From Myxococcota bacterium (GTDB lineage: Bacteria > Myxococcota_A > UBA9160 > SMWR01), in NCBI GenBank assembly GCA_035541475.1, contig DATKND010000056.1, positions 154 through 64,153 on the forward strand: a stretch of 64,000 bases of DNA. Direction: 5' to 3'. A model generated the notes under the pieces. It saw only the letters and a program-made list of their open reading frames with translations, did not search any database and was not told the DNA's origin. Made by a program: the position numbers and the translations under genes. Positions 10,386 through 53,423 of the stretch are shown here, in pieces. Within the stretch, counting starts at the first letter, position 1, and every line of letters starts with the position of its first letter.

Positions 10386-10395
10386 AGCGCGTGGA

Positions 10396-14298: not shown

Positions 14299-14385
14299 TC
14301 ATGCCGGGCCCTCGCGCTCGCTGTTCGCTCGCGCTCGGGCTACCGGCCTTCGCTCGGCAAGCCTTTGCGATCTCCGCTCGGCTGC

Positions 14386-14422: not shown

Positions 14423-14424
14423 TC

Positions 14425-14444
14425 GGCCGACCTGTGGGTCGGCC
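14425..14444 (+). promoter_or_regulatory. 8-bp perfect hairpin GGCCGACC-TGTG-GGTCGGCC 10 nt upstream of the moxR start
   Basis: Read directly. It ends 9 nt before the ATG at 14454, so it would occlude or abut the ribosome-binding region. Could equally be the rfaE terminator. Confidence 0.35.
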
Positions 14445-14453
14445 TCCTAGCCG

Positions 14454-15455: not shown

Positions 15456-15462
15456 GCCTGCG

Positions 15463-24756: not shown

Positions 24757-24757
24757 C

Positions 24758-25845: not shown

Positions 25846-25849
<4 letters not shown>
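24758..25849 (+). CDS. ntrB: PAS-domain sensor histidine kinase (NtrB-like)
   Basis: 363 aa. PAS, H-box GIAHEVRNPLGGI, HATPase N/G boxes (DDGPGIP, GGTGLGL). Starts 1 nt after the dusB stop, the classic nifR3-ntrB-ntrC arrangement. Confidence 0.85.
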
Positions 25850-27270
<1,421 letters not shown>

Positions 27271-29235: not shown

Positions 29236-31194
29236 GTGGTAGAAAGCACACGAACTGAACGATCGAGCCGAGCGGTCGCGCTGCGACGGCTGCTCCTCGC
29301 TACGTCGCTCTGCGCGTGCGCGGTCGGCGCGCAGCGGGCGTCCGCGCAGTCGCAGCGCTTCGAAGGCGAGACCTATCCGGTGAGCTCCTTTCGCATCGAG
29401 TACGCGCTCGACGCCCCGGGCCAGCCCGATCCCGCGGAGCTGCTCGCCACCGAGATCGAGATGCGCGTTGCGGCGGGCGGCTTGCTGCCGCCGAACCCGG
29501 CTGCGCAGAGCGCGCACTTCCGACTCGACGCGGTACCGCCCGGTTCGCGCTTCTACCCGGCCGGCCTGCGCTACGTGAACCGGATGCTGCTCGCCGAGTT
29601 CACGAAGCGCGGCATCGGCGGTGTGCTGATCACCTTGCCCGAGCTCGACGAGTCGAAGGGCGCCGACCACCGCAAGCCGGGCGACACGTCGCTGCTCGTC
29701 CGTATCTGGACCGGACGCGTCGAGGAGGTCTCGACAGTGGCCGACGGCTCGCGCTACGGCGACGAGTCGATCGCGGAGCGCACGAACCGCGAGGATCAGG
29801 CCTGGATCCGCGACGGCTCGCCGGTGACCGCGGGCGGCGATCGCGCGCTGCTCCGCCCCGAGGACATCGAGGACTACGCGGCGCAGCTATCGCGCCAGCC
29901 CGGTCGTCTCGTCAGCCCCGTGTTGCGGCCCGGCGCGATGGAGGGCGCGACGCGCCTCGAGTATCACGTCGCGGAGCAGAAGCCCTGGCTGGTGTATGCC
30001 GAGGCCTCGAACACGGGCACGCCGGCGACGAGCGACTGGCGCGAGCGCTTCGGCTTCAGCGACACGCAGCTCACCGGTCACGACGACGTGGCGCGCTTCG
30101 AGTACACGACCGACTTCCAGAGCGTGCACGCGATCTGGGGCGAGTACGGGGGACCGGTGTGGCACGTGCCGCGCCTGCGCTGGCGCGTCGACGGCACGTG
30201 GAGCAAGTACGACTCGTCGGAGGTCGGCATCTCCGACATCGATTTCAACGGCGACGAATGGTCGACGAGCGGGCGACTCGACCTCAACGTGTTCCAGCAC
30301 CACGACATCTTCGTGGATCTCTTCGCAGACGCGCGCTGGGAGCGGATCGGGGTCGACAACGGCGCATCGGACCCGAGCCACGTGGAAAGCGACTTCTTCC
30401 TGCCGGGCGCCGGTATCAGCGCGTCGCGCGTCGGCGAGGCCTGGTCCTTCGACGCCGAGGCCGGCGTCTCGCACAACCTCGCCGACTTCGCCGACACGAA
30501 GAGCGGAGCGTCCCTCGCGGCGCTCGGCCGCGAGGATGCCGACCGGAATTTCACGCTCTTCACCTGGCACGCCGAGACCGCCTTCTATCCGCTGACCTTG
30601 CTGCGGCGCGCGAGCTGGCGGCAGGAGTCGGAGCTCGGCGCCTACGACTTCGTGCAGGAGCTCGGCTTCGAGTTCTTCGGCCAGCACTCGTTCGGCGACC
30701 GCCTCGTGCCGCAGCTCCAGCAGGTCGCGGGCGGGCTCTACACCGTGCGGGGATACCAGCAGTCGGTCACGGCCGGCGACACCGTCGCGATCGTGCGCGC
30801 CGAGTACCGCCTGCACCTGCCGCGATTGCTCGAGCCGTCGGCGGACGCTCCCGCCGTGCCGCTGCTTGGCACGTTCCGCGTGCGCCCCGAGAGCGCATTC
30901 GGTCTCCCCGACTGGGACCTGATCGCGCGCGCCTTCGTCGACACCGCGCAGGTCGTTCAATACAAGAGCCCCCACAACACCTGCAGTCCTCCGACGGCGC
31001 TGCAGCCGGGTCGATGCAATCAGCTGAACGAGCCCAACGAGACGCTCCACTCGTTCGGCTTCGGTGGTGAGCTGCGCATCCTCCGGTACTTCTCGGCGCG
31101 CCTCGATCTCGCCTGGCCGCAGCGGCGTCTGGAGAACAACAACCCCGAGCTCGAGAAGCCCATGCTCCAAGGCTCCATCAGCGTGCTCTACTAG
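29236..31194 (+). CDS. two-partner secretion transporter, ShlB/FhaC/HecB (Omp85/TpsB) family, copy 1
   Basis: 652 aa. Signal peptide ...CAVGAQRASA, POTRA-like N-terminal region, beta-barrel with L6 motif TVRGYQQ (30745-30756) and FVDTA strand motif, terminal ...GSISVLY aromatic. GTG start. Confidence 0.85.
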   Translation: MVESTRTERSSRAVALRRLLLATSLCACAVGAQRASAQSQRFEGETYPVSSFRIEYALDAPGQPDPAELLATEIEMRVAAGGLLPPNPAAQSAHFRLDAVPPGSRFYPAGLRYVNRMLLAEFTKRGIGGVLITLPELDESKGADHRKPGDTSLLVRIWTGRVEEVSTVADGSRYGDESIAERTNREDQAWIRDGSPVTAGGDRALLRPEDIEDYAAQLSRQPGRLVSPVLRPGAMEGATRLEYHVAEQKPWLVYAEASNTGTPATSDWRERFGFSDTQLTGHDDVARFEYTTDFQSVHAIWGEYGGPVWHVPRLRWRVDGTWSKYDSSEVGISDIDFNGDEWSTSGRLDLNVFQHHDIFVDLFADARWERIGVDNGASDPSHVESDFFLPGAGISASRVGEAWSFDAEAGVSHNLADFADTKSGASLAALGREDADRNFTLFTWHAETAFYPLTLLRRASWRQESELGAYDFVQELGFEFFGQHSFGDRLVPQLQQVAGGLYTVRGYQQSVTAGDTVAIVRAEYRLHLPRLLEPSADAPAVPLLGTFRVRPESAFGLPDWDLIARAFVDTAQVVQYKSPHNTCSPPTALQPGRCNQLNEPNETLHSFGFGGELRILRYFSARLDLAWPQRRLENNNPELEKPMLQGSISVLY

Positions 31195-31212
31195 AAGGAC
31201 GTGGAGGACCCG

Positions 31213-34200
31213 ATGTCGCAACGCACCCGGATGCTCCGCTCGTCCGCCGCGCGCGGGCTCGCCGCCTGGCTGCTCGCCGGGCTCGTCGTCGCGCCGCCGG
31301 GGCTGCCCGCGGCTCTCGCCGCGCCGAAAGGCGAGAAGGTCGTGCGCGGCAAGGCGACCTTCGTCCGCGACGGCGATCTCACGGTCATCCGTCCGAGCAA
31401 CGGCGCGATCATCGAGTACACCGGCTTCGACATCCTGCAGAACGAGGCGGTGCGCTTCGAGCAGCCGAGCGCGAAGTCGCGCGTGCTGAACCGCGTGTCG
31501 GGTCCCGTGAGCCTGATCGAGGGCAAGCTCTCCTCCAACGGCATCGTCTACATCCTGAACCCCGCCGGTGTCTTCTTCGGCCGCACCGCAGTGGTCGACG
31601 TGAAGGGCCTGATGGCCGCGGGCGGCGATCTCACCAACCGCGACTTCGCGCGCGGCGTCGATCGCTTCGATCTCACGGGCCCGGTCGAGAACCAGGGAAC
31701 CTTGCGCGCCGCCGCCGTGGAGCTCCTCGGCAGGAGCGTGACGAATGGCGGCGAGATCGTGACGCCGAACGGCGTCATCGCGCTCGTGGCCGGCGATCAC
31801 GTCTTGCTGACGAAGCTCGAGGGCGGCATCTCGATCGAGGTCGAGGGTCCGCCCGAGGGCGCGCAGACCGGCATCGAGCAGAGCGGCGTCGTCGACGCGG
31901 GCGCGGGCAGCGCGAATTTCGCGGTCGGCGACCACTACTCGCTCGCGATCAACCACTCCGGCATGACCCGCGCGCGCGACATCGAGCTGACGGGCGGCGA
32001 CGGCGGGCTCGTGCGCGTGGCGGGCACGCTCGACGCCTCGGACGCGACGGCCGGCGCGAAGGGCGGCAGGGTCCGCGCGACCGGCGATCTCGTCTCGCTC
32101 GAGGGCGCGACGCTCGACGCCTCGGGCGCGGCCGGCGGCGGCGAGATCCGCGTCGGCGGAGACGTCCACGGCGCGGGCCCGATGCCGAACGCGCGGCGCA
32201 CCTTCGTCGACGCGCAGAGCACGCTCCGCGCCGACGCGCTCGACTCGGGCGACGGCGGCAGCGCGGTCGTGTACGGCACCGAGGCGACGGGCTTCCTCGG
32301 GACGATCTCCGCGCGCGGCGGCGCCGCCGGCGGCAACGGCGGCTTCGCCGAGCTCTCGAGCGGCGGGCGCCTCGTCGATCAGGGCCACGCCGATCTCGGC
32401 GCGCCGCACGGGTCCGCCGGCACGCTCCTCTACGACCCGCAGGACATCGTGATCGTCGGCGGCACGCAGGACGGCAGCGACCAACCCAACACCGCGTCGG
32501 ATCAGCTCGCGCAGACGACCGCCGGCCAGATCCTCTACGCCGACGTCGGCAGCAGCGGCGAGCCCTTCCAGATCTTCGAGTCGGAGATAGAGGGCACGAA
32601 CGCGAACATCGTGCTCCAGGCTCGCAACAGCATCACGGCGAGCGGGACCTTCGATCACGACGCGGGCGGCGAGGGCGCCGGCGTCGTGGTGCTGAAGTCG
32701 GGCAACGATCTGACGCTCAGCACGCGCAACAACGGCGCCACGTCGACGGATCCGGGAGACGCGGCCGGCTCCACGATGGCGCCGGGCATCGATCTCACCG
32801 GCTCGACGCACGGCGCGAACCTCGAGTTCCGCACGACGGGCGACGGCGTCATCACGATGAATACCGGCAACGGCACGGTCGCCGGCCCCGAGGCGCCGAT
32901 CGTCGTCGGCGTGCTGACGACCGACGGACGCGGCGTGGGACTCATCACCAGGGATGGCGGCATCACCGTCAACCACGTCAGCACCGCGGGCGCGAGCGGC
33001 GCGACCGGCGCCAATGGCGGGAACATCGTGCTCGACGCGAGCGACAAGGACGGCAGCGGCGACTCCAACATTCTCGTGACCGGCGACCTCGTGACGCGCG
33101 GCGGTGACGGCACGACCGGCTCGGGAGGGCGCGGCGGCGTGATCAGCCTGGCGGTGCGCGCGAATCCACCGCCCGATGCGATGACGCCACCCGTCGGCGG
33201 CGGCACGATCACGGTGAACGGAAACATCGATACGCGCGGTGGCAGCACGACCGGCACGAGCGACACGAGCTTCGGCGGGAACGGCGGCGGCGTCAGCATC
33301 CAGGCCACCAACGGCGACATCGTCCTCCACGACATCGATGCGTCCGGCGGCACGACCGCGGGCGGGAAGGAGGCGTCCGGCGGTGGCTCCGGGGGCTTCG
33401 TGGGCATGGAGGCCCAGAACCAGGGCGGGATCACCGTCGGCAAGATCACGAGCCGTGGCGGCGATGCGATCTCGACGAACGCCAGCGACGGCGGCGTCGG
33501 CGGCAGCGTCAGCCTGGTGACACAACACGGCGACGTCGATGTGGGCGCCGTCGACACGAGCGGCGGCGCGACCGACGGCAATCAGCTGGATCCGACGGAT
33601 CCGACCCAGCCGGGCGAGTTCGGCGGCACCGGGGGCGACATCCAGGTCCTCGCGGGCTCGCAGTTCGATCAATCGGGCAGCATCCATCTGAACGGAAACC
33701 TCGTGCTGCTCGGCGGCAGCAAGGGCGCCGCTCCGAATGGCGCCGAAGGCCTCGGCGGCGTCGCCGAGCTGCGCGCGCACGACTCGATCGAGACCGCCGG
33801 ACAGGCGGGGCCAAACATCACGACGCAGGCCAACGTGGTCCTGAACGCGGCCAACGTCGGCGCGGTGTCGCCGATCCTCGTGAGCGGGCAGCGCCCCGGC
33901 GGCGAAGCCTCGCCGAAGGGTCTGCTCGGCCTCGGCGCCGACGAGGTCGCGCGCGTGGTGATCGACGAGGGCACGTTCGACGACATCGAGGTCGTCACGT
34001 TCAGCGGGACCGCAGACATGCAGGTCGTCGAGGGCGCCTCGCCGATCGTGCAGATCCAGAACGCGCAGCTCGTGCTGGCCGACTCGACAGCGCATCACGC
34101 GGATCTCGTGGTCGGCAGGCAGGACCGGCTCGACGGCGCCGCCAACACCCCGAATGCCGACATCAAGAACGACGGCCCGCTGCTCCCCTTCACGATCCAG

Positions 34201-36387
34201 ACGGGCAGCATCAACGCGGGCGGCAACGTGCGCGTCACCTCCGAGGGCGACATCATCGTCGGGACCACTCCGGGGACGGTGGCGACGATGCACGCGCTGC
34301 CGCCCGATCCGGCGCATCCGTCCGACCCCAGCGTCTCGGGCGTCCTGATCCTCGACGCCGATTCCGACCGCGATGGGATCGATAAGAACCCGGACGGGTC
34401 GTTCAAGAATCCGCTTGGCGGCGCGATCATCATGGCCCCCGGTGCATCGCTCGATCTCTTCGGCGGCGCCAGCAAGGCCGGCGGACTCGGCGGTTTCGCC
34501 TCGAGCGGCATCGGCACACCGGCCAATCCGGTCGTGACGGTGGGCGGCGGCCCCGTCGGACTCACGAACCTGGCGGAGAACGGCGTCTATCTCCGCAACG
34601 ACGGCAGCGGCGACCTGCACGTCGCGGACGTCGCAATCCTCGGCGACCCGAACAATCCCAACGACGACATCCGCGTGGTCGGCGTCAGCACGCAGGGTGG
34701 CGACGGCGAGATCGTGGTCGAGAACACCGCCGGCAATCTCGTGCTCGAGCGGAGCGTGCAGACCTCCGGCGCGAAGCAGATCACTGGACCGAACACGGGC
34801 GGAGACATCACGCTGCGCGTGCCGTCGGGCTCTCGCATCGTGTTGAACTCGCCGCCGGCCATCTTCGACGCGGACGCCAACGGCAACCTGACGATCGACG
34901 GCGATGTCACCTTGATGCAAGACGCGCGCGTGCGCAGTCAGCAGGGGAACGTCGTCTTCAACGGCACCATCGACACCGACAGCGACCCGACGCTCGAGAA
35001 CCGCGTGCGCTCGCTCGGCGTGGTCGCGTGCGACACCGCCGAGAAGTGCACGCGGACTCCGGGCACGGCGGGCGACATCGACGTGACCGGCGACATCGGC
35101 GCGACCAAGGATCTGCGCGGTCTGATCTTCGACGGCAACGTCGTGCTCTCGGGCGGCGCGCGCCTCGTGAAGACGACGAACCTGCTGAGCTTCCTCGGCG
35201 ACGTCACCGCCGACGCGCAGGACAGCGCGTCGCTCGACATCGTGGCCGGGCCGAGCGTCTCGTTCATGGGCAACGTCGGAGGCGCCGATCCGACCGATCC
35301 CAGCCATCGCCTCGCCGGATTCTCGATCGCGCACAACGACGATCCACCCTTCGATCCGTCGCTGAACGTGACCCTGCCGCAGCCGGTCGTCATCTTCGGC
35401 GGCGACACCGCGCAGACGGTGCAGACCGGAGCGGGCGGCATCGCCTTCACACCGGATGGCCTGCCGGAAATTCCCAACCGCGCGCAGGTCTCGAAGCGCG
35501 GCGGCGACCTGACCCTCTCGAGCGCAGGCGGCACGATCGACTTCGGGCAGAACCAGAAGCTCTCGGTGCAGGGCCAGGCGGCGATCACGGCCGACCAGGT
35601 TCTGCTCGGCGACGTCAATGCGCTCGGTCTGAACGTCACGTCACCGGACGCGCGCATCCGCGCGCGCGACCCGGGACAGGTGCTCCTCAAGTCGGGCGCG
35701 ACGGTCGAGGACCACGGCGCCGACATCATTGCCAACACCGTCACGTTCTCGTCGGACGTCACCGTCGAGGGCACGGGACCCGCGCCGCGCATCGCGACGC
35801 AGAGCGGGAGCGCGGCGGGCGCGGGCGCGCTCGATGTGCAGACCCTGCCGAATCCCGTGCAGAACAGCGATCTCGAGCGCGGCCGCGGCACCTTGCTCGA
35901 CCTGACCTTCCTGCCGACCGAGCTGCCGAACGAGACGCCGCAGCGCGGCCAGATCGTCGAGGAGATCGTGCCGCTGCGCCGCGCCGATCAGACCGCAGCG
36001 GGCAGCGCGCTCGCCCCGGGCGCCGAGGCGACGCTCGCCTATCTCCGCTGCACGGCCGAGCAGCGCAGCGACTGCGCGGTGGCGCCGGGCTCGCCGCTCG
36101 ATTCGCCGCGCGGCAAGCAGCTGGCCGCGGACTCGGCGCGCCTGCTCGGCGACTCGCCCGAGGCGCACAACCTGCGCGCCGCGCTCGCGCGGCTCGATCC
36201 GGCCGCGCTGCGCGAGCTCGCCGTCTTTCTGACCGAGATGCGGCTGCTCGGACTGAGCGACTCCGAGTACCAGTCGGTACGCGACTCGCTCTATCGCGAG
36301 ATCCTCGCCGACCGCGGTCCGGACGCCCCCGACGCGCGCGCCTTCGCGCAGGCGGTGGAGAGCCAGGCTCGTGGAGTGCCGCTCTGA
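31213..36387 (+). CDS. TpsA-type exoprotein 1 (filamentous haemagglutinin N-terminal/TPS domain protein, 1724 aa)
   Basis: ATG at 31213 preceded by GGAGGA (the track start GTG 31201 lacks an RBS). Signal peptide, then TPS domain GKATFVRDGDLTVIRPS...EAVRFEQPSAKSRVLNRVSG...SSNGIVYILNPAGVFFG. Long Gly-rich beta-helix-like repeats and a distinct C-terminal module. Confidence 0.9.
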   Translation: MSQRTRMLRSSAARGLAAWLLAGLVVAPPGLPAALAAPKGEKVVRGKATFVRDGDLTVIRPSNGAIIEYTGFDILQNEAVRFEQPSAKSRVLNRVSGPVSLIEGKLSSNGIVYILNPAGVFFGRTAVVDVKGLMAAGGDLTNRDFARGVDRFDLTGPVENQGTLRAAAVELLGRSVTNGGEIVTPNGVIALVAGDHVLLTKLEGGISIEVEGPPEGAQTGIEQSGVVDAGAGSANFAVGDHYSLAINHSGMTRARDIELTGGDGGLVRVAGTLDASDATAGAKGGRVRATGDLVSLEGATLDASGAAGGGEIRVGGDVHGAGPMPNARRTFVDAQSTLRADALDSGDGGSAVVYGTEATGFLGTISARGGAAGGNGGFAELSSGGRLVDQGHADLGAPHGSAGTLLYDPQDIVIVGGTQDGSDQPNTASDQLAQTTAGQILYADVGSSGEPFQIFESEIEGTNANIVLQARNSITASGTFDHDAGGEGAGVVVLKSGNDLTLSTRNNGATSTDPGDAAGSTMAPGIDLTGSTHGANLEFRTTGDGVITMNTGNGTVAGPEAPIVVGVLTTDGRGVGLITRDGGITVNHVSTAGASGATGANGGNIVLDASDKDGSGDSNILVTGDLVTRGGDGTTGSGGRGGVISLAVRANPPPDAMTPPVGGGTITVNGNIDTRGGSTTGTSDTSFGGNGGGVSIQATNGDIVLHDIDASGGTTAGGKEASGGGSGGFVGMEAQNQGGITVGKITSRGGDAISTNASDGGVGGSVSLVTQHGDVDVGAVDTSGGATDGNQLDPTDPTQPGEFGGTGGDIQVLAGSQFDQSGSIHLNGNLVLLGGSKGAAPNGAEGLGGVAELRAHDSIETAGQAGPNITTQANVVLNAANVGAVSPILVSGQRPGGEASPKGLLGLGADEVARVVIDEGTFDDIEVVTFSGTADMQVVEGASPIVQIQNAQLVLADSTAHHADLVVGRQDRLDGAANTPNADIKNDGPLLPFTIQTGSINAGGNVRVTSEGDIIVGTTPGTVATMHALPPDPAHPSDPSVSGVLILDADSDRDGIDKNPDGSFKNPLGGAIIMAPGASLDLFGGASKAGGLGGFASSGIGTPANPVVTVGGGPVGLTNLAENGVYLRNDGSGDLHVADVAILGDPNNPNDDIRVVGVSTQGGDGEIVVENTAGNLVLERSVQTSGAKQITGPNTGGDITLRVPSGSRIVLNSPPAIFDADANGNLTIDGDVTLMQDARVRSQQGNVVFNGTIDTDSDPTLENRVRSLGVVACDTAEKCTRTPGTAGDIDVTGDIGATKDLRGLIFDGNVVLSGGARLVKTTNLLSFLGDVTADAQDSASLDIVAGPSVSFMGNVGGADPTDPSHRLAGFSIAHNDDPPFDPSLNVTLPQPVVIFGGDTAQTVQTGAGGIAFTPDGLPEIPNRAQVSKRGGDLTLSSAGGTIDFGQNQKLSVQGQAAITADQVLLGDVNALGLNVTSPDARIRARDPGQVLLKSGATVEDHGADIIANTVTFSSDVTVEGTGPAPRIATQSGSAAGAGALDVQTLPNPVQNSDLERGRGTLLDLTFLPTELPNETPQRGQIVEEIVPLRRADQTAAGSALAPGAEATLAYLRCTAEQRSDCAVAPGSPLDSPRGKQLAADSARLLGDSPEAHNLRAALARLDPAALRELAVFLTEMRLLGLSDSEYQSVRDSLYREILADRGPDAPDARAFAQAVESQARGVPL

Positions 36388-36467
36388 GCTTCGCGCGAGG
36401 CGCAGCCGAGCGGAGTCGATGAGACTAGAATGCCGGCCACCGACGCCCCCGCCTCGGTGCCGTTCCA

Positions 36468-38375
36468 ATGCGCCAGACGAACGAGCCTTCGCACTCGGTG
36501 CGCCGCGCGCGGCGCAGCGCGGTGCACTTGGCGATCGCGTGCATCGCGTTCGCCGCAGCGTCCGCGCGCGCGATCGTGACGCCGCAGGGCCCTGCCTACC
36601 CGGTGTCGCAGTTCGTGGTCGAGTACGCGATCGGCCACCCGCATCACATCCCGGAGTACGAGATCCTGAACCTCGAGGTCGGGCTCGCCGGTCAGCCGGG
36701 GCTGCTCACCGCGCCGCGCCCGGTCGACCGCACCATGCGCATGCGCCTCGACGCGCCGCCGCAGGGCATGCTCTTCACGGCCGAGGCGATCCAGCACATC
36801 AACCGCTACATCGTCTCGACCTTCAACCGCCGCGGCTACAACGGCGTGATCGTGTCCGTGCCCGACATCGAGGAGGGCACCGGCCGCGACCTGCGCCCGC
36901 CGGGTGACACGACGCTCCGGCTCCGCATCTGGACCGGCCGCATCACGCGCCTCACCACCTTCGCGGACGACGAGCGCTTCGGCGGGCTCAGCGTCGACGA
37001 GCGCACGAACCTGCCGGCGCACGAGTGGATCCGCGACCGCGCGCCGGTCCAGCCGGGCGGCGTGCGCGCGATCCTCGACGTGGTGGCGCTCGAGGACTAC
37101 GCGGACTGGCTCTCGCGCCATCCGGGACGCCGCGTCGACGTCGAGGTCAGCCCCGGCCCGCATCCGGGCAGCTCGGACGTGAATCTGCGGATCGCCGAGC
37201 AGAAGCCCTGGCGCGTCTTCGCGGAGTACTCGAACACCGGCACTGCCGCCACCACGAAGAACCGCGAGCGCTTCGGCTTCGTCGACACGCAGCTCACCTC
37301 GCGCGACGACACCCTCGACCTCACCTACTCGACCGGCGACTTCGACACCGTGCAGGCGGTCTACGGCGGCTACGAGGCTCCCTTCAGCTTGAACTACCCG
37401 ACCTTGCGCGGCCGCGTGCGCGGGCTCTGGGACAAGTACGACTCGAGCGACGTCGGCTTCGACACGCTCGGCTTCAAGGGCGAGGAGTGGCTCACCGAGG
37501 GCTCGCTCGTCTGGCAGGCCTATCAGGACCACAAGCTCTTCGTCGATCTCGTGGGCGGCGTCCGCTACCACGACATCTCCTCCGACGGCGGCCAGTTCAA
37601 CCAAGGCGCGGCCGGCTGCAAGTCGAACGGCAACGGCCATGCCGACTTCGTCGTGCCTCATTTCGGTGTCGAGAGCGAGCGCGACACGGGCTGGACCAGC
37701 ATGCGCAGCAGCATGGGGTTCGACGTCGGCGTGACCGGCGCGGACTCCTGCGATCTCGACAACCTCGGCAACCTCGACGCCTCGGATCACTTCGTCGTGT
37801 TCAACTGGAGCAGCGCGCTCTCGTTCTTCCTCGAACCGCTGCTGAATCCGCAGGGCTGGGAGGATCCGACCAACCACGCGGACTCGACGCTCGCGCACGA
37901 GATCCAGCTCGACTTCTCGGGCCAGTACGCGTTCGAGCGGCTGGTGCCGCAGTACCAGGCGATCGCCGGCGGACTCGACACCGTGCGCGGCGCCAAGCAG
38001 GCCCAGGTCGCGGGCGACGACCTGGTGCTCGGCCGCGCCGAGTACCGCCTGCACGTGCCGCGCCTCTTCAAGCCCGACGCGACGCCGACCACCTTGCCGG
38101 TCTTCGGCGATTTCCGCACGCGGCCCGCGCACGTCTTCGGCCTGCCGGACTGGGACTTCGTCGTCAGCCTCTTCAGCGACGTCGGCTGGGTCGGCTACCA
38201 CGACCAGAACCCGACCGAGCACGAGGCGACGCTCTGGAGCATCGGCACCGGCTTCGAGCTGCAGGTGCTGCGCAACTTCGTGATCGGCGTGGACGTCGGA
38301 TACATGATCCAGGGCGCGGAAGAGAGTCGGGACGGCACCACCGAGACCAACGTCCTGGCCACGATCCTCTACTAG
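36468..38375 (+). CDS. two-partner secretion transporter, ShlB/FhaC (TpsB) family, copy 2
   Basis: 635 aa, collinear paralogue of copy 1 (YPVSQFVVEYA..., LRIWTGRI, AEQKPWRVFAEYSNTGT, NRERFGFVDTQLT). L6 motif is TVRGAKQ, with FSDVG strand motif and terminal ...LATILY. Confidence 0.85.
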   Translation: MRQTNEPSHSVRRARRSAVHLAIACIAFAAASARAIVTPQGPAYPVSQFVVEYAIGHPHHIPEYEILNLEVGLAGQPGLLTAPRPVDRTMRMRLDAPPQGMLFTAEAIQHINRYIVSTFNRRGYNGVIVSVPDIEEGTGRDLRPPGDTTLRLRIWTGRITRLTTFADDERFGGLSVDERTNLPAHEWIRDRAPVQPGGVRAILDVVALEDYADWLSRHPGRRVDVEVSPGPHPGSSDVNLRIAEQKPWRVFAEYSNTGTAATTKNRERFGFVDTQLTSRDDTLDLTYSTGDFDTVQAVYGGYEAPFSLNYPTLRGRVRGLWDKYDSSDVGFDTLGFKGEEWLTEGSLVWQAYQDHKLFVDLVGGVRYHDISSDGGQFNQGAAGCKSNGNGHADFVVPHFGVESERDTGWTSMRSSMGFDVGVTGADSCDLDNLGNLDASDHFVVFNWSSALSFFLEPLLNPQGWEDPTNHADSTLAHEIQLDFSGQYAFERLVPQYQAIAGGLDTVRGAKQAQVAGDDLVLGRAEYRLHVPRLFKPDATPTTLPVFGDFRTRPAHVFGLPDWDFVVSLFSDVGWVGYHDQNPTEHEATLWSIGTGFELQVLRNFVIGVDVGYMIQGAEESRDGTTETNVLATILY

Positions 38376-38383
38376 GAGCGCGC

Positions 38384-41300
38384 ATGCGAAAGGCATGGGA
38401 GCGGAGCGAAGCGCGGACGTCGCGGGCGCGGCGCGCGACCGCCTGGAGCGTGCTCGGCGCCTTCCTCGGCACCTTGCCCGGCGCGCCCGCCGCGATCGCC
38501 GCGCCGCAGGGCGAGCGCGTCGTGAAGGGCAAGGCGACCTTCGAGCGCGACGGCGCGGACACGCACATCACGACGCAGACGAAGGAGACGATCGTCGACT
38601 ACGACCGCTTCGACGTCGGCTCCGGCGAGAGCGTGCGCATCGACCAGCCGACCTCGCGCTCGCGCATCCTGAACCGCGTCCCGCGCGGCGACGAGAGCCG
38701 CATCGACGGCTCGCTCTCCTCGAACGGCATCGTCTACATCCTGAACCCGGCCGGCGTGTTCCTCGGCGACCACGCGGTGGTGAGCGTCGGCGGGCTCGTG
38801 GCGGGCGCGGGCTCGCTCTCGAACAAGGACTTCTCGCGCGGCGTCGACCGCATCACCGACGTGCAGGGCGATGTCGGCGTGGCCGAGGGCGCGCGCGTGC
38901 AGTCCACCGGCGACGTGCTGCTCGCCGGGCGCCACGTCGAGAACCTCGGCGAGATCGCGAGCGAGCGCGGCATGATCGCGCTCGTCGCCGGCCAGAACGT
39001 GATGCTGACGCGCCACGGCAGCCACCTGCTCCTCGATGTCGACGCGCCGGCGGAGTCCGCCGGCGATCCGAACTTTGCGCTCACCCAGGCCGGCACGCTC
39101 GAGGCCAAGAGCGTCACCTTGTCCGCGGGCGACAGCTACTCGCTCGCGATGAACCACACCGGCATCACGCGCGCCGGCGAGATCGACGTCCAGGCCGGGC
39201 GCGAGGCCGAGGTCGAGCTCGCGGGCACGCTCGACGCCTCGAACGCGGCGGTCGGCAAGACCGGCGGGAGCATCCACGTCGAGGGCGGGAAGATCGACGT
39301 GCAGGACGCGACGCTCGACGCCTCGGGCGCCGCGGGCGGCGGCGAGATCCTCGTCGGCGGCGATCTGCACGGCGGCGGGACCATGCCGGTCGCGCACGAC
39401 GTGGAGGTCGGCGCGGACGCGACACTCCGCGCGGACGCCACGGCCGCCGGCAACGGCGGGAAGATCATCGTCTACGCGGACGAGCAGACGCGCTTCTACG
39501 GGGCCGTCTCCGCGCGCGGCGGTCCGCAGGGCGGCGACGGCGGCTTCGCCGAGATCTCGGGGATGGTGCTCACGGCCGCGGGCCACGTCGATCTCGGCGC
39601 CGCGCAGGGCCAGAGCGGAACGGTGCTCTACGACCCGGACAAGATCGTGATCGTCGGCGGCAGCGGCACCGACACGAACGATCCGACGGTGAGCCAGATG
39701 TACGAGTCGAGCCTCGAGAGCACGAATGCGGACGTCGTGATCTCGGCGACGAACCGGATCGAGACCGCGGGCACTTTCACGAACCAGGCCGCCGGCGAGG
39801 GCCCGGGCATCGTCGTGATCATGCCGGGCCACAGCCTGACCTTGCGGACCACGGCCACCTCGGCGCCGCTGAGCGCCGGCCCCGACGACTTCGGCATCGA
39901 TCTCACGAAGAGCTCGGAGGGCGACACGCTCACCTGGCGCGTAAGCCAGGGCGGGAACATCACGATCCAGACCGCGTTCGACACCGTGGACCCGGCGCCC
40001 TCGTTTCAGCCGCCCATCAAGGTCGGCAAGCTCGAGTCGAACAGCGCGGCCTTCCAGACCACTACGACGGCGAGCGTCGACACGCCCGTGTCGGCGGACC
40101 GGACCATCACGATCTCCGCCAAGCGCGGCGACATTTCCGTGCGTCAGATCACCGCGAACGGCGACGACGCGACGCCGGCGCAGCCCGCCGAGGGGAACAA
40201 TCCGGCGAGAGCGGCCCGTAGCGCCAGCGGAGCCGCGAGCATCACGGTCACGAGCTCGGAGGGCAACGTCACGATCGGCAACGGATCGGACGCCTTCGCG
40301 ATCCAGGCGCATGGCGGCAGCGGCACGCCGAGCGCCCACTCACTCGGTGCGAAGGGCGCCTCGGTCACGATCGGCACCGAGGGCGGGAATCTGGACGTGC
40401 TCGGCGCGATCGACGCCCACGGCGGCGACGGCGTCGGCTCCTTCACGATCACGAATCCAACCACGGGGCAGTCGGGCCAGGCCTCGGGCGGCGGCGCCGG
40501 CGGCGCGATCGCGCTCGCCGCGACCACGAGCTCGACCGATCCCGCCGTCGACCAGGGTCACCTCCGAGTGATGGCGGACCTCGATGCTCGCGGCGGCAAC
40601 GGCCACGCGGTGCGCAACGACGACGGAACAGTGGAGGACGCGACCGGCAACTTCGGCGGCGCGATCGCGCTCTCCGCGACGCGGACCATCGATGTCGGGG
40701 CAGCGGGCGCGCGCGTCACCTTCGACGCGTCGGGCGGCGACGGCACTTCGTCGGGCGGCAGCGCGCGCGGCAGCAACGCCAGTCTGACCCCCGATGTGCC
40801 GGGGGCCGCCCTGACCGAGGCCTTCCGCATCTCGGGTCCGGTCGCCGACAACGGATCGGTCGGGGTCACCGAGGACGACGTCACGATCCACGCGGACCTG
40901 ATCGCACGAGGCGGCAACGCGCGAAGCGGGGCTCTCGCCGAGGACGGCATCGCGTTCTCGGAGCTTGCGGGCGGGGACGGCGGCCACGGCGGCGACGCCA
41001 GCGTGCAGGCGCACAGTTTCCTCGCGAGCGACATGCTGCTCGACATGAGCGGGGGCGCAGGGAGCGCCGCCCCGGTGCGAGGCGGCGTCGATCCGCCGCG
41101 CGGCGCGGATGGCAAGGCGCTCCTGCTCGGCGGAAACGGCGGCACGCTCTCGATCGGCGCCGAGGCGACGATCGAGCTCGGCGGCACCGCATCCGATCCG
41201 GAGGCCTGCTGCGGCGTGATCTCGCGGGGCGGCGACGCCACGAACGGCGGCGCCGGAGACGGCGGCATCGTCACGGCCACGGGCGGCGACGTTGCGCCGA

Positions 41301-44300
41301 CCGGAGCGCCCGATCCGACGCATTGGATCATCGCCGGCGACATGGACGTGTCGGGCGGCAACGCGTCGCTCGAGAACCCGACCAGCAAGGTGCCGCTCGA
41401 CGGCGGTGCCGGCGGCAGCATCACGCTCACCTCGAACGAGGAGGACGTCGGCCGCGTGCTGCTGCGCGGGCGGCTCGGCGGCGAGGGCGGCACGGGCATC
41501 GACACGGATGGCAACACCACGCACGGACAGGGTGCCACCGTGACCCTGACCGCGGTGTCGGCCATTCAGGTCGATGGCTCGGTGCTGAACCCCGATGGCA
41601 GCGTCCCGGCAGGTGTCGTCGTCGGGGGAGGCAACCTGACGCTCGGCGCGAAGTACATCGGAACCGGAACGAACGACGACGGCACGCCGACGGGCGTGGA
41701 CGCGCCGATCCCGATCGCCGGCACGGCCGTCACGGGCGCCGAGGGCTCCGACCTCGCGACGATCACGGGCAACGCCCCGGACACCACCGCCAATGCCGGG
41801 CGGATCGCCGTGGAGCTCCGACGCGAGAACGGGCTCCCGACGAACGGGACCGACGCCGCGGGCCAGGAGGGCCTCGAGACCCTCGTGGTCGTGATGCACG
41901 ACCCGGCGAGCACGGCGCTGGTGACGCGCGACGACTCGGGTGGCGACACCATGGTGCTCCAATCGGTCGGGGCTACCGCCACGACGCCCCACACGCTCGA
42001 GAGTCTCCAGACGAACGACGGGGATCCGTTCGTCGAATATCGCCTCGACGTCAGCGTCGACACCACCACCGGTGCGACGCAGCCCGACCTCGCGATCGCG
42101 CGCGATGCGATCGACGTGGGCATCGTGGGGGCGCGGGTCGCGAACGGCGGCACCAACCCCGACGCGACCACCGGCGTCGCGCCGAATCGCGGCGCGATCG
42201 TGGCGGTCGGCGCCGGCACGGATCCGCACGCCACCACCGCCGGCACCCTGAACTTCGAGGGCTCGTCGATCGGGACGGCGACGGATCCGATCGAAGTGGC
42301 CGGTGTCACGCACGACCAGCCCGGCGCGACGAACCCGATCCGACCGATCCTGCGCTTCGACGCGCAGGGCGAGATCCAGGCGAAGGTCGCTCAGAGCACG
42401 CCCGTCTCCGACCTCGAGATCGTGCAGTTCGACGCGGGATCCGGCGCGCACGTCGACCTCGGCGGAGGCGACGGTATCCAGATCGACTCGGCCAGCGCCG
42501 ACTCGAGGGTTCCGATCAGCCGCATCACGAGCGCGGTCACGACCGCGTCGGGCACCGGCTTCAGCTATCGGCTCGAGGCGAAGGCTCCCGACAAGTCGGT
42601 GAATGAGGCAGCCCTCCAGGTGGACCACGTCGACCTCGGCGGCACCGGCCTGCTGAGCGCCCCGGGCGACGTGCTGCTGCGCGACACCGGCAGCGGCTCG
42701 CCCGCGATCCAGACGAACGGCCACGCGCTTTCGATCTCGAGCACGAGCGGCGGCATCCAGCAGGAAGGCACCGGGATCTCGATCGACATGAGCGGCGGCA
42801 CGGGCACGGAGCGCGATCTCGTGCTGACCACCAACGGCGACATCGGCACCGTCGGCACCAACGGCGCCCCCGATCAGCCGATCCGCACGCGCGGGGTCCA
42901 TCGCCTCGCGGGCCAGGCGGCGCTCGGCGACCTCGTGCTCGTGAACGACTCCGCGGGCACCGACGGGCTCCGGATCGAGCAGCTCACGCCGCAGGATCCC
43001 GCGCTCCAGGATTCCGGCTCGAGCGGCTCTTCCGTCAACGGGCTCCTCGCGAGCGGATCGAACGGGAGCGGCAACGTCCGCATCGAGAACGACGACTCGC
43101 GCATCGTGCTCGGCAACGTGGGCGCCGGTGGCGAGTTCAGCGTCGCGCAGATCACCGCGGCCGCGGGCGTGATGTTGAAGGCGCAGTCGATCGAGATCGA
43201 GAACGCGCGTTACCTGAAGGTCGCGACGCCGCTCGGCCCGGTGTTCGTACCGCTGAACGACGCGCGCATCGCGGCGGGCAAGGACGTGGTGCTCGACGGG
43301 CCGGTGCAGACCTCGCTCGGCTCGGTCGCCTCGAGCACGGACCCGGCCGCGCCGGCCCCCCAGTTCGTGAACGGCAAGCTGAAGATCGAGTCGAAGGGCA
43401 CGACGCACTTCACCGGCGACGTCGGCGGCGACGGCAGCGACGACCAGAACGAGCTCGCGCTGCTCGACACGACCGATGCGGCCGCCGAGGGCGCCGGCAC
43501 GCGCACCTTCCGCGTCGGCGACGCGCACTTCCGCGGCACGCTCGACGGCCCGGCGGGCGTGCAGGTGATCGCGCACGACCTCAGCACGTCGGCGCCGGAC
43601 CACGTGGCCGGCGCGACCTTCGACGGAAACATCGGCGGTCACACGCCGCTCGCAAGCTTCGACGTGCAGGCCGAGCAGCTCCGCTTCACGACAGCGAACC
43701 AGATCGTCGCGACGGGCGACATCACCCTCGACGGCAATCCGACGAACACCCCGCAGACGGTCGCGACGATCGCCGACACCACCGGCGGTCTCAGCATCCG
43801 CTCGCAGAACGGCACGTTCCGCACCGGCGAGCAGCCCGTTCCGGGTGCCGTCACGAACGAGAAGCTCTCGGTGCAGGGGCCGCTCGAGATCTCCGCTCAG
43901 CACGTCTCGGTCGAGGACGTCAACGCCGCGCAGCACCTCCAGATCAACTCGCCCGACATCCAGATCCGCGCGCGCGATCCCGGTACGCTGCTGCTCAAGA
44001 ACGGCCAGACGACGACCGACGGCGGCACCGACCTCGTCGCCGACTCGATCTCCTTCTCGACGCTCCCGACGATCGATCACGGCGCGAGCACCGCGCCCGT
44101 GCTCCTCGGCGTGGGCGGCGGCGGCGTCTCCGCGCCGGGCAACTTGAGCGACTTCGAGGTTAGGCGCTTCACGCCGAGCGTGGACCGCGTCGTGCCGGGC
44201 GACATGACGGGTCCGAGCGGCGTGGTGCTCGACCTGACCGCGACCGGCAACAGCATCGTCGGCGATCCGAGCGAGGACGTGCCGCGGCAGCGCCCGCTGA

Positions 44301-44863
44301 CCGACCCGTACCTGCCGCCGCGCTTCAGCAAGCAGCAGCCGGGGCCCGCTCCGGTCGTCGACGCGGAGCAGGTGCTCGCATATCTGCGCTGCGGCGACGC
44401 AGGCGGCGTCGGCGCGGGCTGCGACGTGGCGGACAGCGAGGAGCTCGCCGGCGTGCACGACTGGCAGAACTCCGCGCTTGCGACACCGCGCGCGGATCAG
44501 CTCGCGCAGAGCTACCGCGCGATGCGCGCGCACAAGCTCTCCGCGGTCTTCGACCGGGCCGGCACGGGCTTCCGCCAGGCGCAGGGCTTCGGCGAGTTCG
44601 ATTCGGCGGCCTTCGCCCGCTACCTCGAGAGCGGCGCGCAGCCCGAGGCGCGCACGGCGATCCACCAGCTCGCGTACCTGCTGGTCGAGGTCGATCTCCT
44701 CGGCCTCGCGCCCGCCGACGAGATGCACGTGCGCCGCGAGCTCGCCTCGCAGCTCGCGACCGAGGCCGACCTCGAGGGCTTCGACACGGACGCCGCGCTG
44801 CAAGCCGTCGCGGCGACGTCGATCGAGCTGCCGCAGCGGGCCGCGAACGAGACGCGGCGCTAG
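38384..44863 (+). CDS. TpsA-type exoprotein 2 (TPS domain protein, 2159 aa)
   Basis: ATG at 38384 with AGGAG 5 nt upstream, 8 nt after the tpsB2 stop. TPS domain GKATFERDGADTHITTQ...ESVRIDQPTSRSRILNRV...SSNGIVYILNPAGVFLG. Gly-rich repeats and a C-terminal module shared with exoprotein 1. The upstream 453 codons of the track ORF overlap tpsB2 and are rejected. Confidence 0.9.
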   Translation: MRKAWERSEARTSRARRATAWSVLGAFLGTLPGAPAAIAAPQGERVVKGKATFERDGADTHITTQTKETIVDYDRFDVGSGESVRIDQPTSRSRILNRVPRGDESRIDGSLSSNGIVYILNPAGVFLGDHAVVSVGGLVAGAGSLSNKDFSRGVDRITDVQGDVGVAEGARVQSTGDVLLAGRHVENLGEIASERGMIALVAGQNVMLTRHGSHLLLDVDAPAESAGDPNFALTQAGTLEAKSVTLSAGDSYSLAMNHTGITRAGEIDVQAGREAEVELAGTLDASNAAVGKTGGSIHVEGGKIDVQDATLDASGAAGGGEILVGGDLHGGGTMPVAHDVEVGADATLRADATAAGNGGKIIVYADEQTRFYGAVSARGGPQGGDGGFAEISGMVLTAAGHVDLGAAQGQSGTVLYDPDKIVIVGGSGTDTNDPTVSQMYESSLESTNADVVISATNRIETAGTFTNQAAGEGPGIVVIMPGHSLTLRTTATSAPLSAGPDDFGIDLTKSSEGDTLTWRVSQGGNITIQTAFDTVDPAPSFQPPIKVGKLESNSAAFQTTTTASVDTPVSADRTITISAKRGDISVRQITANGDDATPAQPAEGNNPARAARSASGAASITVTSSEGNVTIGNGSDAFAIQAHGGSGTPSAHSLGAKGASVTIGTEGGNLDVLGAIDAHGGDGVGSFTITNPTTGQSGQASGGGAGGAIALAATTSSTDPAVDQGHLRVMADLDARGGNGHAVRNDDGTVEDATGNFGGAIALSATRTIDVGAAGARVTFDASGGDGTSSGGSARGSNASLTPDVPGAALTEAFRISGPVADNGSVGVTEDDVTIHADLIARGGNARSGALAEDGIAFSELAGGDGGHGGDASVQAHSFLASDMLLDMSGGAGSAAPVRGGVDPPRGADGKALLLGGNGGTLSIGAEATIELGGTASDPEACCGVISRGGDATNGGAGDGGIVTATGGDVAPTGAPDPTHWIIAGDMDVSGGNASLENPTSKVPLDGGAGGSITLTSNEEDVGRVLLRGRLGGEGGTGIDTDGNTTHGQGATVTLTAVSAIQVDGSVLNPDGSVPAGVVVGGGNLTLGAKYIGTGTNDDGTPTGVDAPIPIAGTAVTGAEGSDLATITGNAPDTTANAGRIAVELRRENGLPTNGTDAAGQEGLETLVVVMHDPASTALVTRDDSGGDTMVLQSVGATATTPHTLESLQTNDGDPFVEYRLDVSVDTTTGATQPDLAIARDAIDVGIVGARVANGGTNPDATTGVAPNRGAIVAVGAGTDPHATTAGTLNFEGSSIGTATDPIEVAGVTHDQPGATNPIRPILRFDAQGEIQAKVAQSTPVSDLEIVQFDAGSGAHVDLGGGDGIQIDSASADSRVPISRITSAVTTASGTGFSYRLEAKAPDKSVNEAALQVDHVDLGGTGLLSAPGDVLLRDTGSGSPAIQTNGHALSISSTSGGIQQEGTGISIDMSGGTGTERDLVLTTNGDIGTVGTNGAPDQPIRTRGVHRLAGQAALGDLVLVNDSAGTDGLRIEQLTPQDPALQDSGSSGSSVNGLLASGSNGSGNVRIENDDSRIVLGNVGAGGEFSVAQITAAAGVMLKAQSIEIENARYLKVATPLGPVFVPLNDARIAAGKDVVLDGPVQTSLGSVASSTDPAAPAPQFVNGKLKIESKGTTHFTGDVGGDGSDDQNELALLDTTDAAAEGAGTRTFRVGDAHFRGTLDGPAGVQVIAHDLSTSAPDHVAGATFDGNIGGHTPLASFDVQAEQLRFTTANQIVATGDITLDGNPTNTPQTVATIADTTGGLSIRSQNGTFRTGEQPVPGAVTNEKLSVQGPLEISAQHVSVEDVNAAQHLQINSPDIQIRARDPGTLLLKNGQTTTDGGTDLVADSISFSTLPTIDHGASTAPVLLGVGGGGVSAPGNLSDFEVRRFTPSVDRVVPGDMTGPSGVVLDLTATGNSIVGDPSEDVPRQRPLTDPYLPPRFSKQQPGPAPVVDAEQVLAYLRCGDAGGVGAGCDVADSEELAGVHDWQNSALATPRADQLAQSYRAMRAHKLSAVFDRAGTGFRQAQGFGEFDSAAFARYLESGAQPEARTAIHQLAYLLVEVDLLGLAPADEMHVRRELASQLATEADLEGFDTDAALQAVAATSIELPQRAANETRR

Positions 44864-45738
44864 TGCACCGCGCCGCGCTTCGCGCGCAGCGCGTCGCGCT
44901 TCGCGCGGAGCGCCGCGGCGTCGGGGTGGCCGGGCAGGAGCTCCAGCGCGCGGTCGAGATCCGCGGCGGCCGCCGAGTGCAGCGACATGCCCTCGTACAC
45001 GAGCGCGCGGTCGCGTAGCTCGGTCGGCGAATCGGGAAGCAGCATCAGGATGCGATCGCAGCAGCCGAGTGTGCGCTCGAGGTCGCCGCGGTCCGCGTAG
45101 ATGCGCTTCAGGTTGCCGAGCAGGCGCCCCAGGATCTCGCGCGGCGGCGCGGCGCGCAGGTGCACGGCCGGCTCGAGCAGCGCGGGCATCGGCAACGCCG
45201 CGTCGAGGCGACGCTGACACGCGTCGCGGTCGAGGATCGCGCGCTCGAAGGCGTCAACCACCAGGAGCCCGTCCGGCACCGCGCAGCGGAGCAGGAAGTG
45301 ACCGGGGAACGACACGCCCTCGAAGCCCAGTCCGAGGCGGTGGCCGACGGCCTGCATCACGAGCGCGAGCGTGATCGGGATGCCGAGCCGGCGCTCCAGC
45401 ACCTCGTTCAGGAAGCTGTTGCGCGGGTCGTAGTAGTCCTGCGTGTTGCCGCGGAAGCCCTGCGCGCGGAAGAAGTCGACCAGGGTCGCGATCCGCTCGA
45501 CCGCGTCGCCGCCCTGCGCGATCTCCGGCGCGGCCGCGTCGGCGAGTGAATCGAGGCGCGCGAGGTAGCGCGCGACGTCGAGATCCGCGTACTCCTCGGC
45601 CGCGATCCAGAGCGCCGCCTCGGCGAGGTCGATCGCCGCGTCGGACCCCGTGGCGATCTCGCCGAAACGCTCCCGCGGATTCGCGCCCGCTACGCCCAGA
45701 AGGCGTCCACCGCGTACTGGTCGAGCGCCGTCGACCAC
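44860..45738 (-). CDS. SirB1-like protein (transglutaminase-like N-terminal region + TPR, UPF0162-type)
   Basis: C-terminal about 290 aa of the 422-aa track ORF: ...DLAEAALWIAAEEYADLDVARYLARLDSLA...RGNTQDYYDPRNSFLNEVLERRLGIPITLALV...FPGHFLLR... plus TPR. The start is uncertain: the nearest in-frame canonical start is the GTG at 45738, which overlaps the upstream gene by 49 nt. Confidence 0.6.
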   Translation of the reverse strand: MVDGARPVRGGRLLGVAGANPRERFGEIATGSDAAIDLAEAALWIAAEEYADLDVARYLARLDSLADAAAPEIAQGGDAVERIATLVDFFRAQGFRGNTQDYYDPRNSFLNEVLERRLGIPITLALVMQAVGHRLGLGFEGVSFPGHFLLRCAVPDGLLVVDAFERAILDRDACQRRLDAALPMPALLEPAVHLRAAPPREILGRLLGNLKRIYADRGDLERTLGCCDRILMLLPDSPTELRDRALVYEGMSLHSAAAADLDRALELLPGHPDAAALRAKRDALRAKRGAVH

Positions 45739-53356: not shown

Positions 53357-53423
53357 CGGGGCCGGAGGATAGGCGGCGACGCAGGTAGAATGCCGCGTCG
53401 CGCGCTCGCGCCGAGGGAACGGG

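Follow-up and report, generated by a model that had tools for sequence, protein, structure and literature searches.

The 64-kb window analysed here (64,000 nucleotides of contig DATKND010000056.1, with a GC content of 65–78%) carries, at positions 29236–44863, four co-directional genes. They make up a tandem of two paralogous type Vb (two-partner) secretion systems and belong to the native chromosome of a Myxococcota bacterium that has not been cultured. On the forward strand, tpsB1 (29236–31194; 652 amino acids) is followed by tpsA1 (31213–36387; 1724 amino acids, with an alternative GTG start at 31201) and, after a spacer of 80 nucleotides without an open reading frame (36388–36467), by tpsB2 (36468–38375; 635 amino acids) and tpsA2 (38384–44863; 2159 amino acids). 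The B genes code for Omp85/TpsB transporters and the A genes for TpsA exoproteins; B1 and A1 are referred to below as the type-1 pair, B2 and A2 as the type-2 pair. Only 18 nucleotides separate B1 from A1, and 8 separate B2 from A2. This layout had been described in a first-pass annotation of the same DNA, and the lengths and gaps given there agree both with the open reading frame calls and with an independent gene caller on a near-identical European Nucleotide Archive (ENA) metagenome contig, ERZ27256510 (73.9 kb), which yields four products of identical lengths. The A2 protein equals the ENA protein P0004 except for T1159A (codon at 41858–41860); since this is the only difference, the two public assemblies sample nearly identical populations. 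The 90% cluster of P0004 also holds NCBI HVN38111.1, a 'filamentous hemagglutinin N-terminal domain-containing protein [Myxococcota bacterium]', and the genes have thus already been annotated in a generic way.

A Shine-Dalgarno-like GGAGGA lies 6 nucleotides 5' of the A1 ATG, and an AGGAG directly 5' of the A2 ATG overlaps the stop codon of B2. Judged from the sequence, this spacing of the translational-coupling type and the Shine-Dalgarno sequences link the B gene to the A gene in each pair. At the other end, the A2 stop codon TAG (44861–44863) overlaps that of a convergent gene (44860–44862), as had been noted before. The many long antisense open reading frames are the usual shadows of high-GC DNA.

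Both B proteins match the Pfam family ShlB (PF03865) above its cut-off of 22.7 bits (B1, 31.4 bits, E = 1.7e-7; B2, 40.8 bits, E = 2.4e-10), and they are 40% identical to each other over 597 amino acids. B1, which ends in SVLY, contains the L6-type motif YTVRGYQQ; the core of this motif is TVRGY in B1 and TVRGA in B2. An AlphaFold2 (AF2) model of B2, calculated from an alignment of 52 sequences, has a mean predicted local distance difference test score (pLDDT) of 87.4 and a predicted template modelling score of 0.79. It contains 16 long barrel strands between residues 248 and 634 and a periplasmic alpha/beta region of about 200 residues. The L6 loop (residues 489–517, between strands 11 and 12) carries Arg507-Gly508, invariant in the 52 sequences. 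When the model is compared with the Protein Data Bank (PDB) using Foldseek, the best match is CdiB (6wim; E = 3.9e-24, template modelling scores 0.59/0.68), followed by FhaC (4ql0 and 4qky) and a second CdiB; BamA and TamA rank after these. The alignments with CdiB and FhaC extend over 613–660 columns and hence cover the periplasmic part of B2 as well. As modelled, TpsB thus combines an Omp85 barrel of 16 strands with an alpha/beta region in the periplasm, and the ShlB/FhaC-type assignment made in the first-pass annotation holds at the levels of both sequence and predicted fold.

The periplasmic part of the B2 model (residues 1–245, encoded by 36468–37202) seems to consist of three alpha/beta modules, at residues 43–95, 100–167 and 170–244, versus the canonical two polypeptide transport-associated (POTRA) domains. 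Its counterpart in B1 is encoded by 29236–29979 and, likewise, has no Pfam POTRA match at E ≤ 10. More than 314 homologues of the B proteins were found; they are named ShlB/FhaC/HecB, and PF03865 is precomputed on all of the 120 listed. Homologues also occur in metagenome-assembled genomes (MAGs) labelled Gemmatimonas, Eiseniibacteriota, Acidobacteriota and Phycisphaera.

The A proteins carry a two-partner secretion (TPS) domain near the N-terminus. The Pfam TPS model (PF05860, cut-off 33.5 bits) matches A1 with 72.3 bits (E = 7.6e-20) and A2 with 87.5 bits (E = 1.7e-24), and TIGR01901, which describes the NPXG motif (cut-off 29.1 bits), matches with 58.2 bits (E = 5.7e-16) and 60.4 bits (E = 1.1e-16), respectively. 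The best PF05860 stretch spans residues 64–260 of A1 (31402–31992, forward strand), where it contains SSNGIVYILNPAGVFFG, and residues 40–285 of A2 (38501–39238, forward strand). An NPAG motif is present at residue 116 of A1 and residue 121 of A2, and SSNGIVYILNPAGVF(F/L)G, which the first-pass annotation had reported for both proteins, is indeed seen in both translations. Signal peptides of the TpsA proteins were judged by eye; both N-termini are signal-peptide-like, and that of A1 contains the sequence PAALA/APKGE.

When the PDB sequences were searched with A2, EtpA aligned from residue 11 to 476 of A2 (residues 40–508 of EtpA, E = 1e-39 to 1e-40; residues 11–454 of A2 at 1e-40), including the NG.V..(L/V)NP.GV..G motif and the GNGG...GG.GG..E.S block. 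HMW1 (2odl, E = 5e-27) and HxuA (4i84 and 4rm6, E about 1e-17 to 8e-18) were also matched, and no FHA-, HpmA- or CdiA-type chain was found at E ≤ 0.01 with full-length A2. The N-terminal 600 residues, at E ≤ 0.001, gave the same five matches as the full-length protein. Because EtpA, HMW1 and HxuA are matched and chains of the FHA, HpmA or CdiA type are not, we assign the TPS domain, by sequence, to the HMW1/EtpA/HxuA class.

The paralogues had been described as collinear but diverged. This is correct for B1 and B2, while A1 and A2 can be aligned only at their ends: the first ~570 residues are 46% identical and the last ~330–400 residues 29–30% identical, and the ~800–1200 residues in between are not alignable. 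A near-identical nucleotide run around the TPS core does exist, but its register had been placed 2 nucleotides off; the 22 nucleotides at 31541–31562 equal 38727–38748, rather than the stretch starting at 38725. The central shaft is rich in Gly, Ala, Thr and Asp, with 15–16% Gly (15.8% in A1, which has only four Cys), and shows loose repeats of the form (S/R)GG(D/N)...GG.GG.I.L. N-x-S/T sequons are few, 9 and 15 in the two proteins. Searching 600-residue slices of both shafts and C-termini against Pfam at E ≤ 10 gave just a chance match to PSD3 (E = 0.3).

The homology of the C-termini of A1 and A2, with its conserved pair of cysteines, had been overlooked in the first-pass annotation. The C-terminal module of A1 (residues ~1342–1724; 35236–36384, forward strand) aligns with residues 1739–2150 of A2 with 29% identity (E about 7e-25 to 2e-26) and contains Cys1613 (36049–36051) and Cys1621 (36073–36075) in the sequence LAYLRC-x7-C. 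In both proteins the order is the same: beta-helix rungs, a Pro-rich disordered linker, a Cys-x(6–13)-Cys loop and a helical bundle of about 150 residues. An AF2 model of residues 1800–2159 of A2 (overall pLDDT 86.8) shows this arrangement. The last rungs of the beta-helix (residues 1800–1930; 43781–44173, forward strand) correspond to model residues 1–130, which are all short beta strands with a pLDDT of ~90; the rung motif EKLSV.G.L.I...VGDLSA..I.I.SP.I....R.PG is conserved. The Pro-rich linker (residues ~1931–1993; 44174–44362, forward strand), with the conserved pattern DP..E.PR..P.V.P, has no regular secondary structure in the model, and its pLDDT falls below 50 at model residues 161–176. 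The helical bundle with the Cys loop (residues 1994–2143; 44363–44812, forward strand) consists of seven helices at model residues 195–344, with a pLDDT of 90–97. Cys2003 (44390–44392) and Cys2013 (44420–44422) close a loop between the helices at model residues 195–204 and 216–223. The bundle is highly charged, without a hydrophobic hairpin and without a match to a catalytic family.

A word-indexed protein search with the C-terminus returned only three fragments, and an exhaustive HMMER search with a C-terminal profile was needed to reveal the family. Its matches comprise 146 cluster representatives, of which 75 reach E ≤ 1e-10; every member traced to a source comes from a metagenome or MAG. 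Matches that reach the helical part of the profile end at the extreme C-terminus in every full-length protein (1500–2250 residues), and nearly all such proteins with an intact N-terminus have a signal-like start and an NP.G(V/I) TPS motif. Short matches, which might have been stand-alone copies of the helical domain, turned out to be fragments of TpsA genes on short contigs. Both cysteines are invariant in the 26 aligned family members (26/26); the C-x(6–13)-C loop is present in 26–27 of the ~31 strong full-length members and in 28 of all 56 full-length matches, most of which match the last rungs only. The terminal motif AV.AS.IGLP is also conserved. No Pfam model matched any of 26 family C-termini; the profile found no PDB sequence at E ≤ 0.1, with just two unrelated L27-type chains (E = 0.12–0.16) up to E = 1, and the best Foldseek match of the C-terminal model in the PDB has an E-value of 0.57. 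From these comparisons, the C-termini of A1 and A2 are homologous members of a so far undescribed domain family.

Tandem or multiple TPS systems are common. A scan of Genome Taxonomy Database species representatives gave four related loci, the two closest being in Myxococcota MAGs. The survey for further B-A-B-A tandems, suggested earlier, was successful: six further metagenomic contigs carry the B1-A1-B2-A2 cassette, in most cases at the equivalent position of the chromosome. The lengths of B1/A1/B2/A2 are 642/1555/641/2092 residues in locus L002, 632/1803/650/2102 in L008, which has a different neighbourhood, 629/1514/620/2077 in L009, 639/2131/660/1938 in L010, 633/1839/625/2056 in L011 and 631/1874/618/1746 in the JGI 3300041966 contig. 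Locus L007, at the same position of the chromosome, has just one pair, of type 2, while L001 is ended by a contig edge and shares the downstream synteny.

The B proteins are 48–64% identical within type 1, 50–66% within type 2 and 39–46% between types; the B1 orthologues in L002, L008 and L009, for instance, are 48% identical to B1, versus 39% for B2-type proteins. For the C-termini of the A proteins, the corresponding values are 36–57%, 33–64% and 25–34%. Since these identity matrices split type-1 from type-2 pairs, B1/A1 and B2/A2 form separate orthologous groups in which every B remains paired with its partner A, and the duplication is older than the split between the sampled populations, of which there are at least seven. 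The earlier proposal of an old duplication kept in tandem is thereby borne out.

Some individual loci deserve mention. In L008, a Y1 transposase-like gene and a DUF6508 gene (17927–19106) lie about 1.6 kb downstream of the cassette; this suggests that the four genes may on occasion have moved as a unit. The JGI 3300041966 locus, and no other, has an extra same-strand open reading frame of 139 residues (15391–15810) between tpsA2 and the transglutaminase-like gene; it has no Pfam match and no counterpart in the window. In L003 (Phycisphaerales MAG JADLGW010000056.1, ~9900–21185), a TPS match begins at 10001. No closed forward open reading frame of at least 300 residues is listed downstream, and the TpsA-like reading frame therefore probably runs past the end of the locus and would exceed 3700 residues. 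A forward open reading frame of 758 residues (7578–9854) lies just upstream of this match.

The cassette has a GC content of 0.69–0.73 and a GC at third codon positions (GC3) of 0.90–0.95, the same as the other genes of the window and in line with the native composition claimed for it earlier. Upstream, Pfam identifies a sigma54 response regulator, TMP-TENI and, immediately before tpsB1, a NupC-type nucleoside transporter (27949–29178, forward strand; Nucleos_tra2_N, Gate and Nucleos_tra2_C), which is also the upstream neighbour in L007, L009 and JGI 3300041966. Downstream, there are a transglutaminase/TPR gene, SnoaL, an ACS-like gene and asparaginase. Most related loci keep these flanks, with a PAS histidine kinase and sigma54 response regulator, TMP-TENI and NupC upstream and likewise the downstream set. 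The remaining genes of the window are of the housekeeping kind (COX1, heme O synthase, PtsP, YhdP-like, MoxR, MoeA and Dus). As flanks and remainder alike are housekeeping genes, the cassette is a native chromosomal locus and not an island.

The convergent neighbour of tpsA2 (44860–45738, reverse strand; 292 residues) is a SirB1/YchA-like protein with Transglut_core2 (PF13369, E = 7.6e-40) and TPR_9 domains; it is without a signal peptide and probably cytoplasmic. The gene is convergent with tpsA2 in most related loci: it keeps its place in L001, L007, L009, L010 and L011, in L010 despite different other neighbours, and is missing at the non-syntenic cassette L008. Two genes upstream of tpsB1, at 24449–27270 (forward strand), an open reading frame (24449–25849, with a PAS histidine kinase gene at the matching position of L007) adjoins an NtrC-type sigma54 response regulator; L007 has a kinase-regulator pair in the same place. 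Because of this regulator, the window was searched for the sigma54 promoter motif TGGCAC-N5-TTGC with up to two mismatches. There were 27 matches versus 43 expected and none 5' of tpsB1, leaving a regulatory link between regulator and cassette unsupported. A scan of 27–46.5 kb for sigma70 promoters and terminators gave nothing above shuffled controls and no terminator-like site in the A1-B2 spacer; a tandem-repeat scan for phase-variation tracts found only short two-copy coding repeats, and Rfam and tRNA scans of the window gave no matches. Elsewhere in the window, three open reading frames with coding-type GC3 have no Pfam match: 18226–19491 (reverse strand, 421 residues), 19965–21734 (forward strand, 589 residues) and 51680–53593 (reverse strand, 637 residues). 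The first two sit in the GC maximum of the window (0.77–0.78 at 16–20 kb).

For two-partner secretion in general, the POTRA domains of TpsB recognise TpsA, once exported by Sec, through its TPS domain; the protein then crosses the barrel unfolded and forms its beta-helix outside (PMC5422565). The C-termini of HMW1 and HxuA remain periplasmic, and a disulfide-containing anchor domain locks the TpsA protein in the TpsB pore (PMC5422565); a 'cysteine hook' keeps CdrA in CdrB, its adhesive N-terminus lying at the distal tip (PMC7616799). Transposing this to the present locus, each TpsA would be exported by Sec, and the periplasmic part of its cognate neighbour TpsB would recognise the TPS domain; the chain would then thread through the barrel and fold outside into a beta-helical fibre of a few tens of nm. 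The C-terminal helical bundle would fold in the periplasm, where a putative disulfide between the paired cysteines, assumed by analogy, would lock it and make it unable to pass the pore. With the bundle blocked in the periplasm and the Pro-rich linker remaining threaded through, and held in, the TpsB pore, the fibre would stay attached to the cell surface through its C-terminus, and the conserved first ~570 residues would form its distal tip. The layout of the module (the end of a beta-helix, a Pro-rich segment of barrel-spanning length and a helical domain with a Cys loop) is as expected for a retention device, only larger, and it is this resemblance to the retention devices of HMW1, HxuA and CdrA that suggests tethering.

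Several known systems can serve for comparison. EtpBAC of enterotoxigenic E. coli comprises the EtpA adhesin and the EtpB transporter. Its gene order is B then A, as in the present cassette, EtpA is the best relative of A2 among solved structures, and in both systems the exoproteins are large, Gly-rich and beta-helical, the beta-helix being presumed in our case. The shafts and C-termini of A1 and A2 are, however, unrelated in sequence to EtpA, which is reported to be secreted and to bind flagellin (PMC5422565). Neither within 10 kb on either side nor among the other window open reading frames scanned was a gene for an HMW1C/EtpC-type glycosyltransferase found. HMW1/HMW1B and HxuA/HxuB of Haemophilus influenzae share with A1 and A2 the class of TPS domain and, presumably, the principle of a C-terminal, Cys-based anchor; the HMW1 system differs in having HMW1C, and sequons are few here. 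CdrA/CdrB of Pseudomonas aeruginosa, with a fibrillar TpsA and a C-terminal hook, is functionally the closest model for our proposal. Unlike the A1/A2 locus, which has no LapG or LapD genes, CdrA contains MBG2-type repeats, and LapG, a periplasmic protease, releases it (PMC7616799). The transglutaminase-like neighbour was considered as a LapG analogue and rejected, because it belongs to a different family (PF13369 plus TPR_9, SirB1/YchA), has no signal peptide and is missing at the non-syntenic L008.

The function of the locus had been left open in the first-pass annotation. It can be narrowed on two grounds: the class of the TPS domain (HMW1/EtpA/HxuA) and the conserved C-terminal module with its Cys loop, which suggests that the proteins are tethered at the surface. 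We consider it reasonably probable that A1 and A2 are C-terminally tethered fibres for adhesion or matrix binding; to the tethering taken by itself, which is argued from analogy, we give an even chance. The fibres probably serve in surface adhesion or in binding matrix, and not in delivering toxins, and the two conserved pairs probably yield two fibres that are not redundant and have a dedicated transporter each.

A number of observations weigh against the tethered-fibre interpretation. The N-terminal regions of B1 and B2 do not match any of the Pfam POTRA models even at E ≤ 10; the Pfam scan suggested earlier was positive for ShlB and PF05860 and negative for POTRA and Fil_haemagg. An FhaC-type H1 plug helix is not evident in the B2 model, because the sole N-terminal helix (residues 9–33) coincides with the signal-peptide-like sequence RRARRSAVHLAIACIAFAAASARA. 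Two strong family members, P0053 and P0057, are without the Cys pair. The known anchors are also short. That of HMW1 reportedly has about 20 residues. The HxuA anchor has 66 (PMC5422565), whereas in A1 and A2 a helical bundle made of 105–160 further residues comes after the Cys loop; sequence similarity between these anchors and the ~150-residue domain was not detected. That the bundle sits in the periplasm, that a disulfide forms and that the fibre is tethered are conclusions drawn by analogy, and no target, regulator or promoter has been identified for the cassette.

One alternative is that the fibres are released. The module would then be a prodomain like that of FhaB, periplasmic during secretion, which controls folding or timing and is subsequently degraded, leaving an adhesin or matrix protein that is soluble or only loosely attached. 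The FhaB prodomain is said to consist of a Pro-rich region and a conserved extreme C-terminus, which the module resembles; the terminal motif AV.AS.IGLP could be a protease recognition tail and the disordered linker offers a plausible cleavage site. The TPS domain, however, is of the HMW1/EtpA/HxuA class, with no FHA-type chain at E ≤ 0.01, and neither the locus nor its conserved neighbourhood contains a gene for an SphB1-, CtpA- or LapG-like protease. The near-invariant disulfide loop is, furthermore, a hallmark of the retained class (PMC5422565). Release is the main rival to tethering, though we consider it unlikely. Equally tentative is a more far-reaching form of the tethering proposal, in which the module represents a new and much larger class of periplasmic TpsA domain, perhaps docking on the POTRA region of its own TpsB or acting as a switch for regulated release or signalling, and the dual cassette would provide an environmental clade of Myxococcota with two interdependent fibres. 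Docking on the own TpsB would explain the strict co-conservation of B1 with A1 and of B2 with A2.

Contact-dependent inhibition (CDI) could be excluded, by sequence, as the family to which the locus belongs. Among solved structures, the B2 model matches a CdiB best, and the overall type Vb logic is common to both systems, but the VENN motif, FHA-1/FHA-2 repeats, polymorphic C-terminal (CT) region and cdiI gene of CdiB/CdiA systems are all not found here. None of VENN, ELYN, [VIL][DE]NN, NEALV, LYVT and DAMV was found by regular expression in five A proteins, and FHA-1/FHA-2 repeats (PF05594, PF13332) were not detected in whole A proteins or 600-residue segments at E ≤ 10. There is no immunity-like open reading frame in the window and no room for one, since the 80-nucleotide A1-B2 spacer is empty and the A2 stop codon overlaps the convergent 292-residue gene. 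The C-terminus of the A proteins is conserved across the family and between paralogues, not polymorphic. The absence of a CdiA-type junction and of a downstream immunity gene had been stated correctly in the first-pass annotation, and none of the refuting outcomes named there materialised. A contact-dependent effector of a different kind could have a non-polymorphic C-terminal helical domain, held in the periplasm until the fibre binds its target and then exported as in CdiA; an immunity gene would not be needed, because the producer would be without the target. Myxococcota are a phylum with many predators, a domain without a known fold match leaves room for an activity, and the extra 139-residue open reading frame after A2 in the JGI 3300041966 locus could be taken in the same sense. 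Against this stand the lack, in the window, of pretoxin junctions, FHA repeats and immunity-like genes, and a domain that is conserved, highly charged and free of hydrophobic hairpins or catalytic-family matches, making an effector role quite improbable. Cytolysins of the ShlA/HpmA/ExlA type, activated during secretion by ShlB-type partners, would fit the B-then-A order and the Pfam name of the B family ('haemolysin secretion/activation protein'), but EtpBAC has the same order, full-length A2 matches only EtpA, HMW1 and HxuA and no haemolysin-type TPS chain in the PDB at E ≤ 0.01, and no pore-forming C-terminal domain was matched, so that a cytolysin is very improbable. An assembly artefact or recent mobile-element duplication, for which the different neighbourhood of the L008 cassette and the Y1 transposase-like gene ~1.6 kb downstream of it might speak, is refuted by the divergence of the paralogues (only 40–46% identical), their pair-wise orthology, the native composition and the same arrangement in independent ENA, JGI and NCBI assemblies.

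The locus is a variation on a well-known theme rather than a new kind of biology, and automatic annotation already labels its genes as filamentous-haemagglutinin-N-terminal-domain and ShlB/FhaC/HecB proteins. What is new is the C-terminal domain family, so far without annotation, and the ancient conservation of the double cassette. Together, the A proteins make up a coherent, so far undescribed TpsA subfamily, which combines a secretion domain of the HMW1/EtpA type with a family-specific C-terminal domain held by no domain library. The strictly paired and anciently duplicated cassette lends itself naturally to the study of TpsA-TpsB specificity. Should the retention model hold, the 'cysteine hook' or disulfide anchor principle would reach environmental phyla beyond Haemophilus and Pseudomonas, and the anchor could be a full folded domain.

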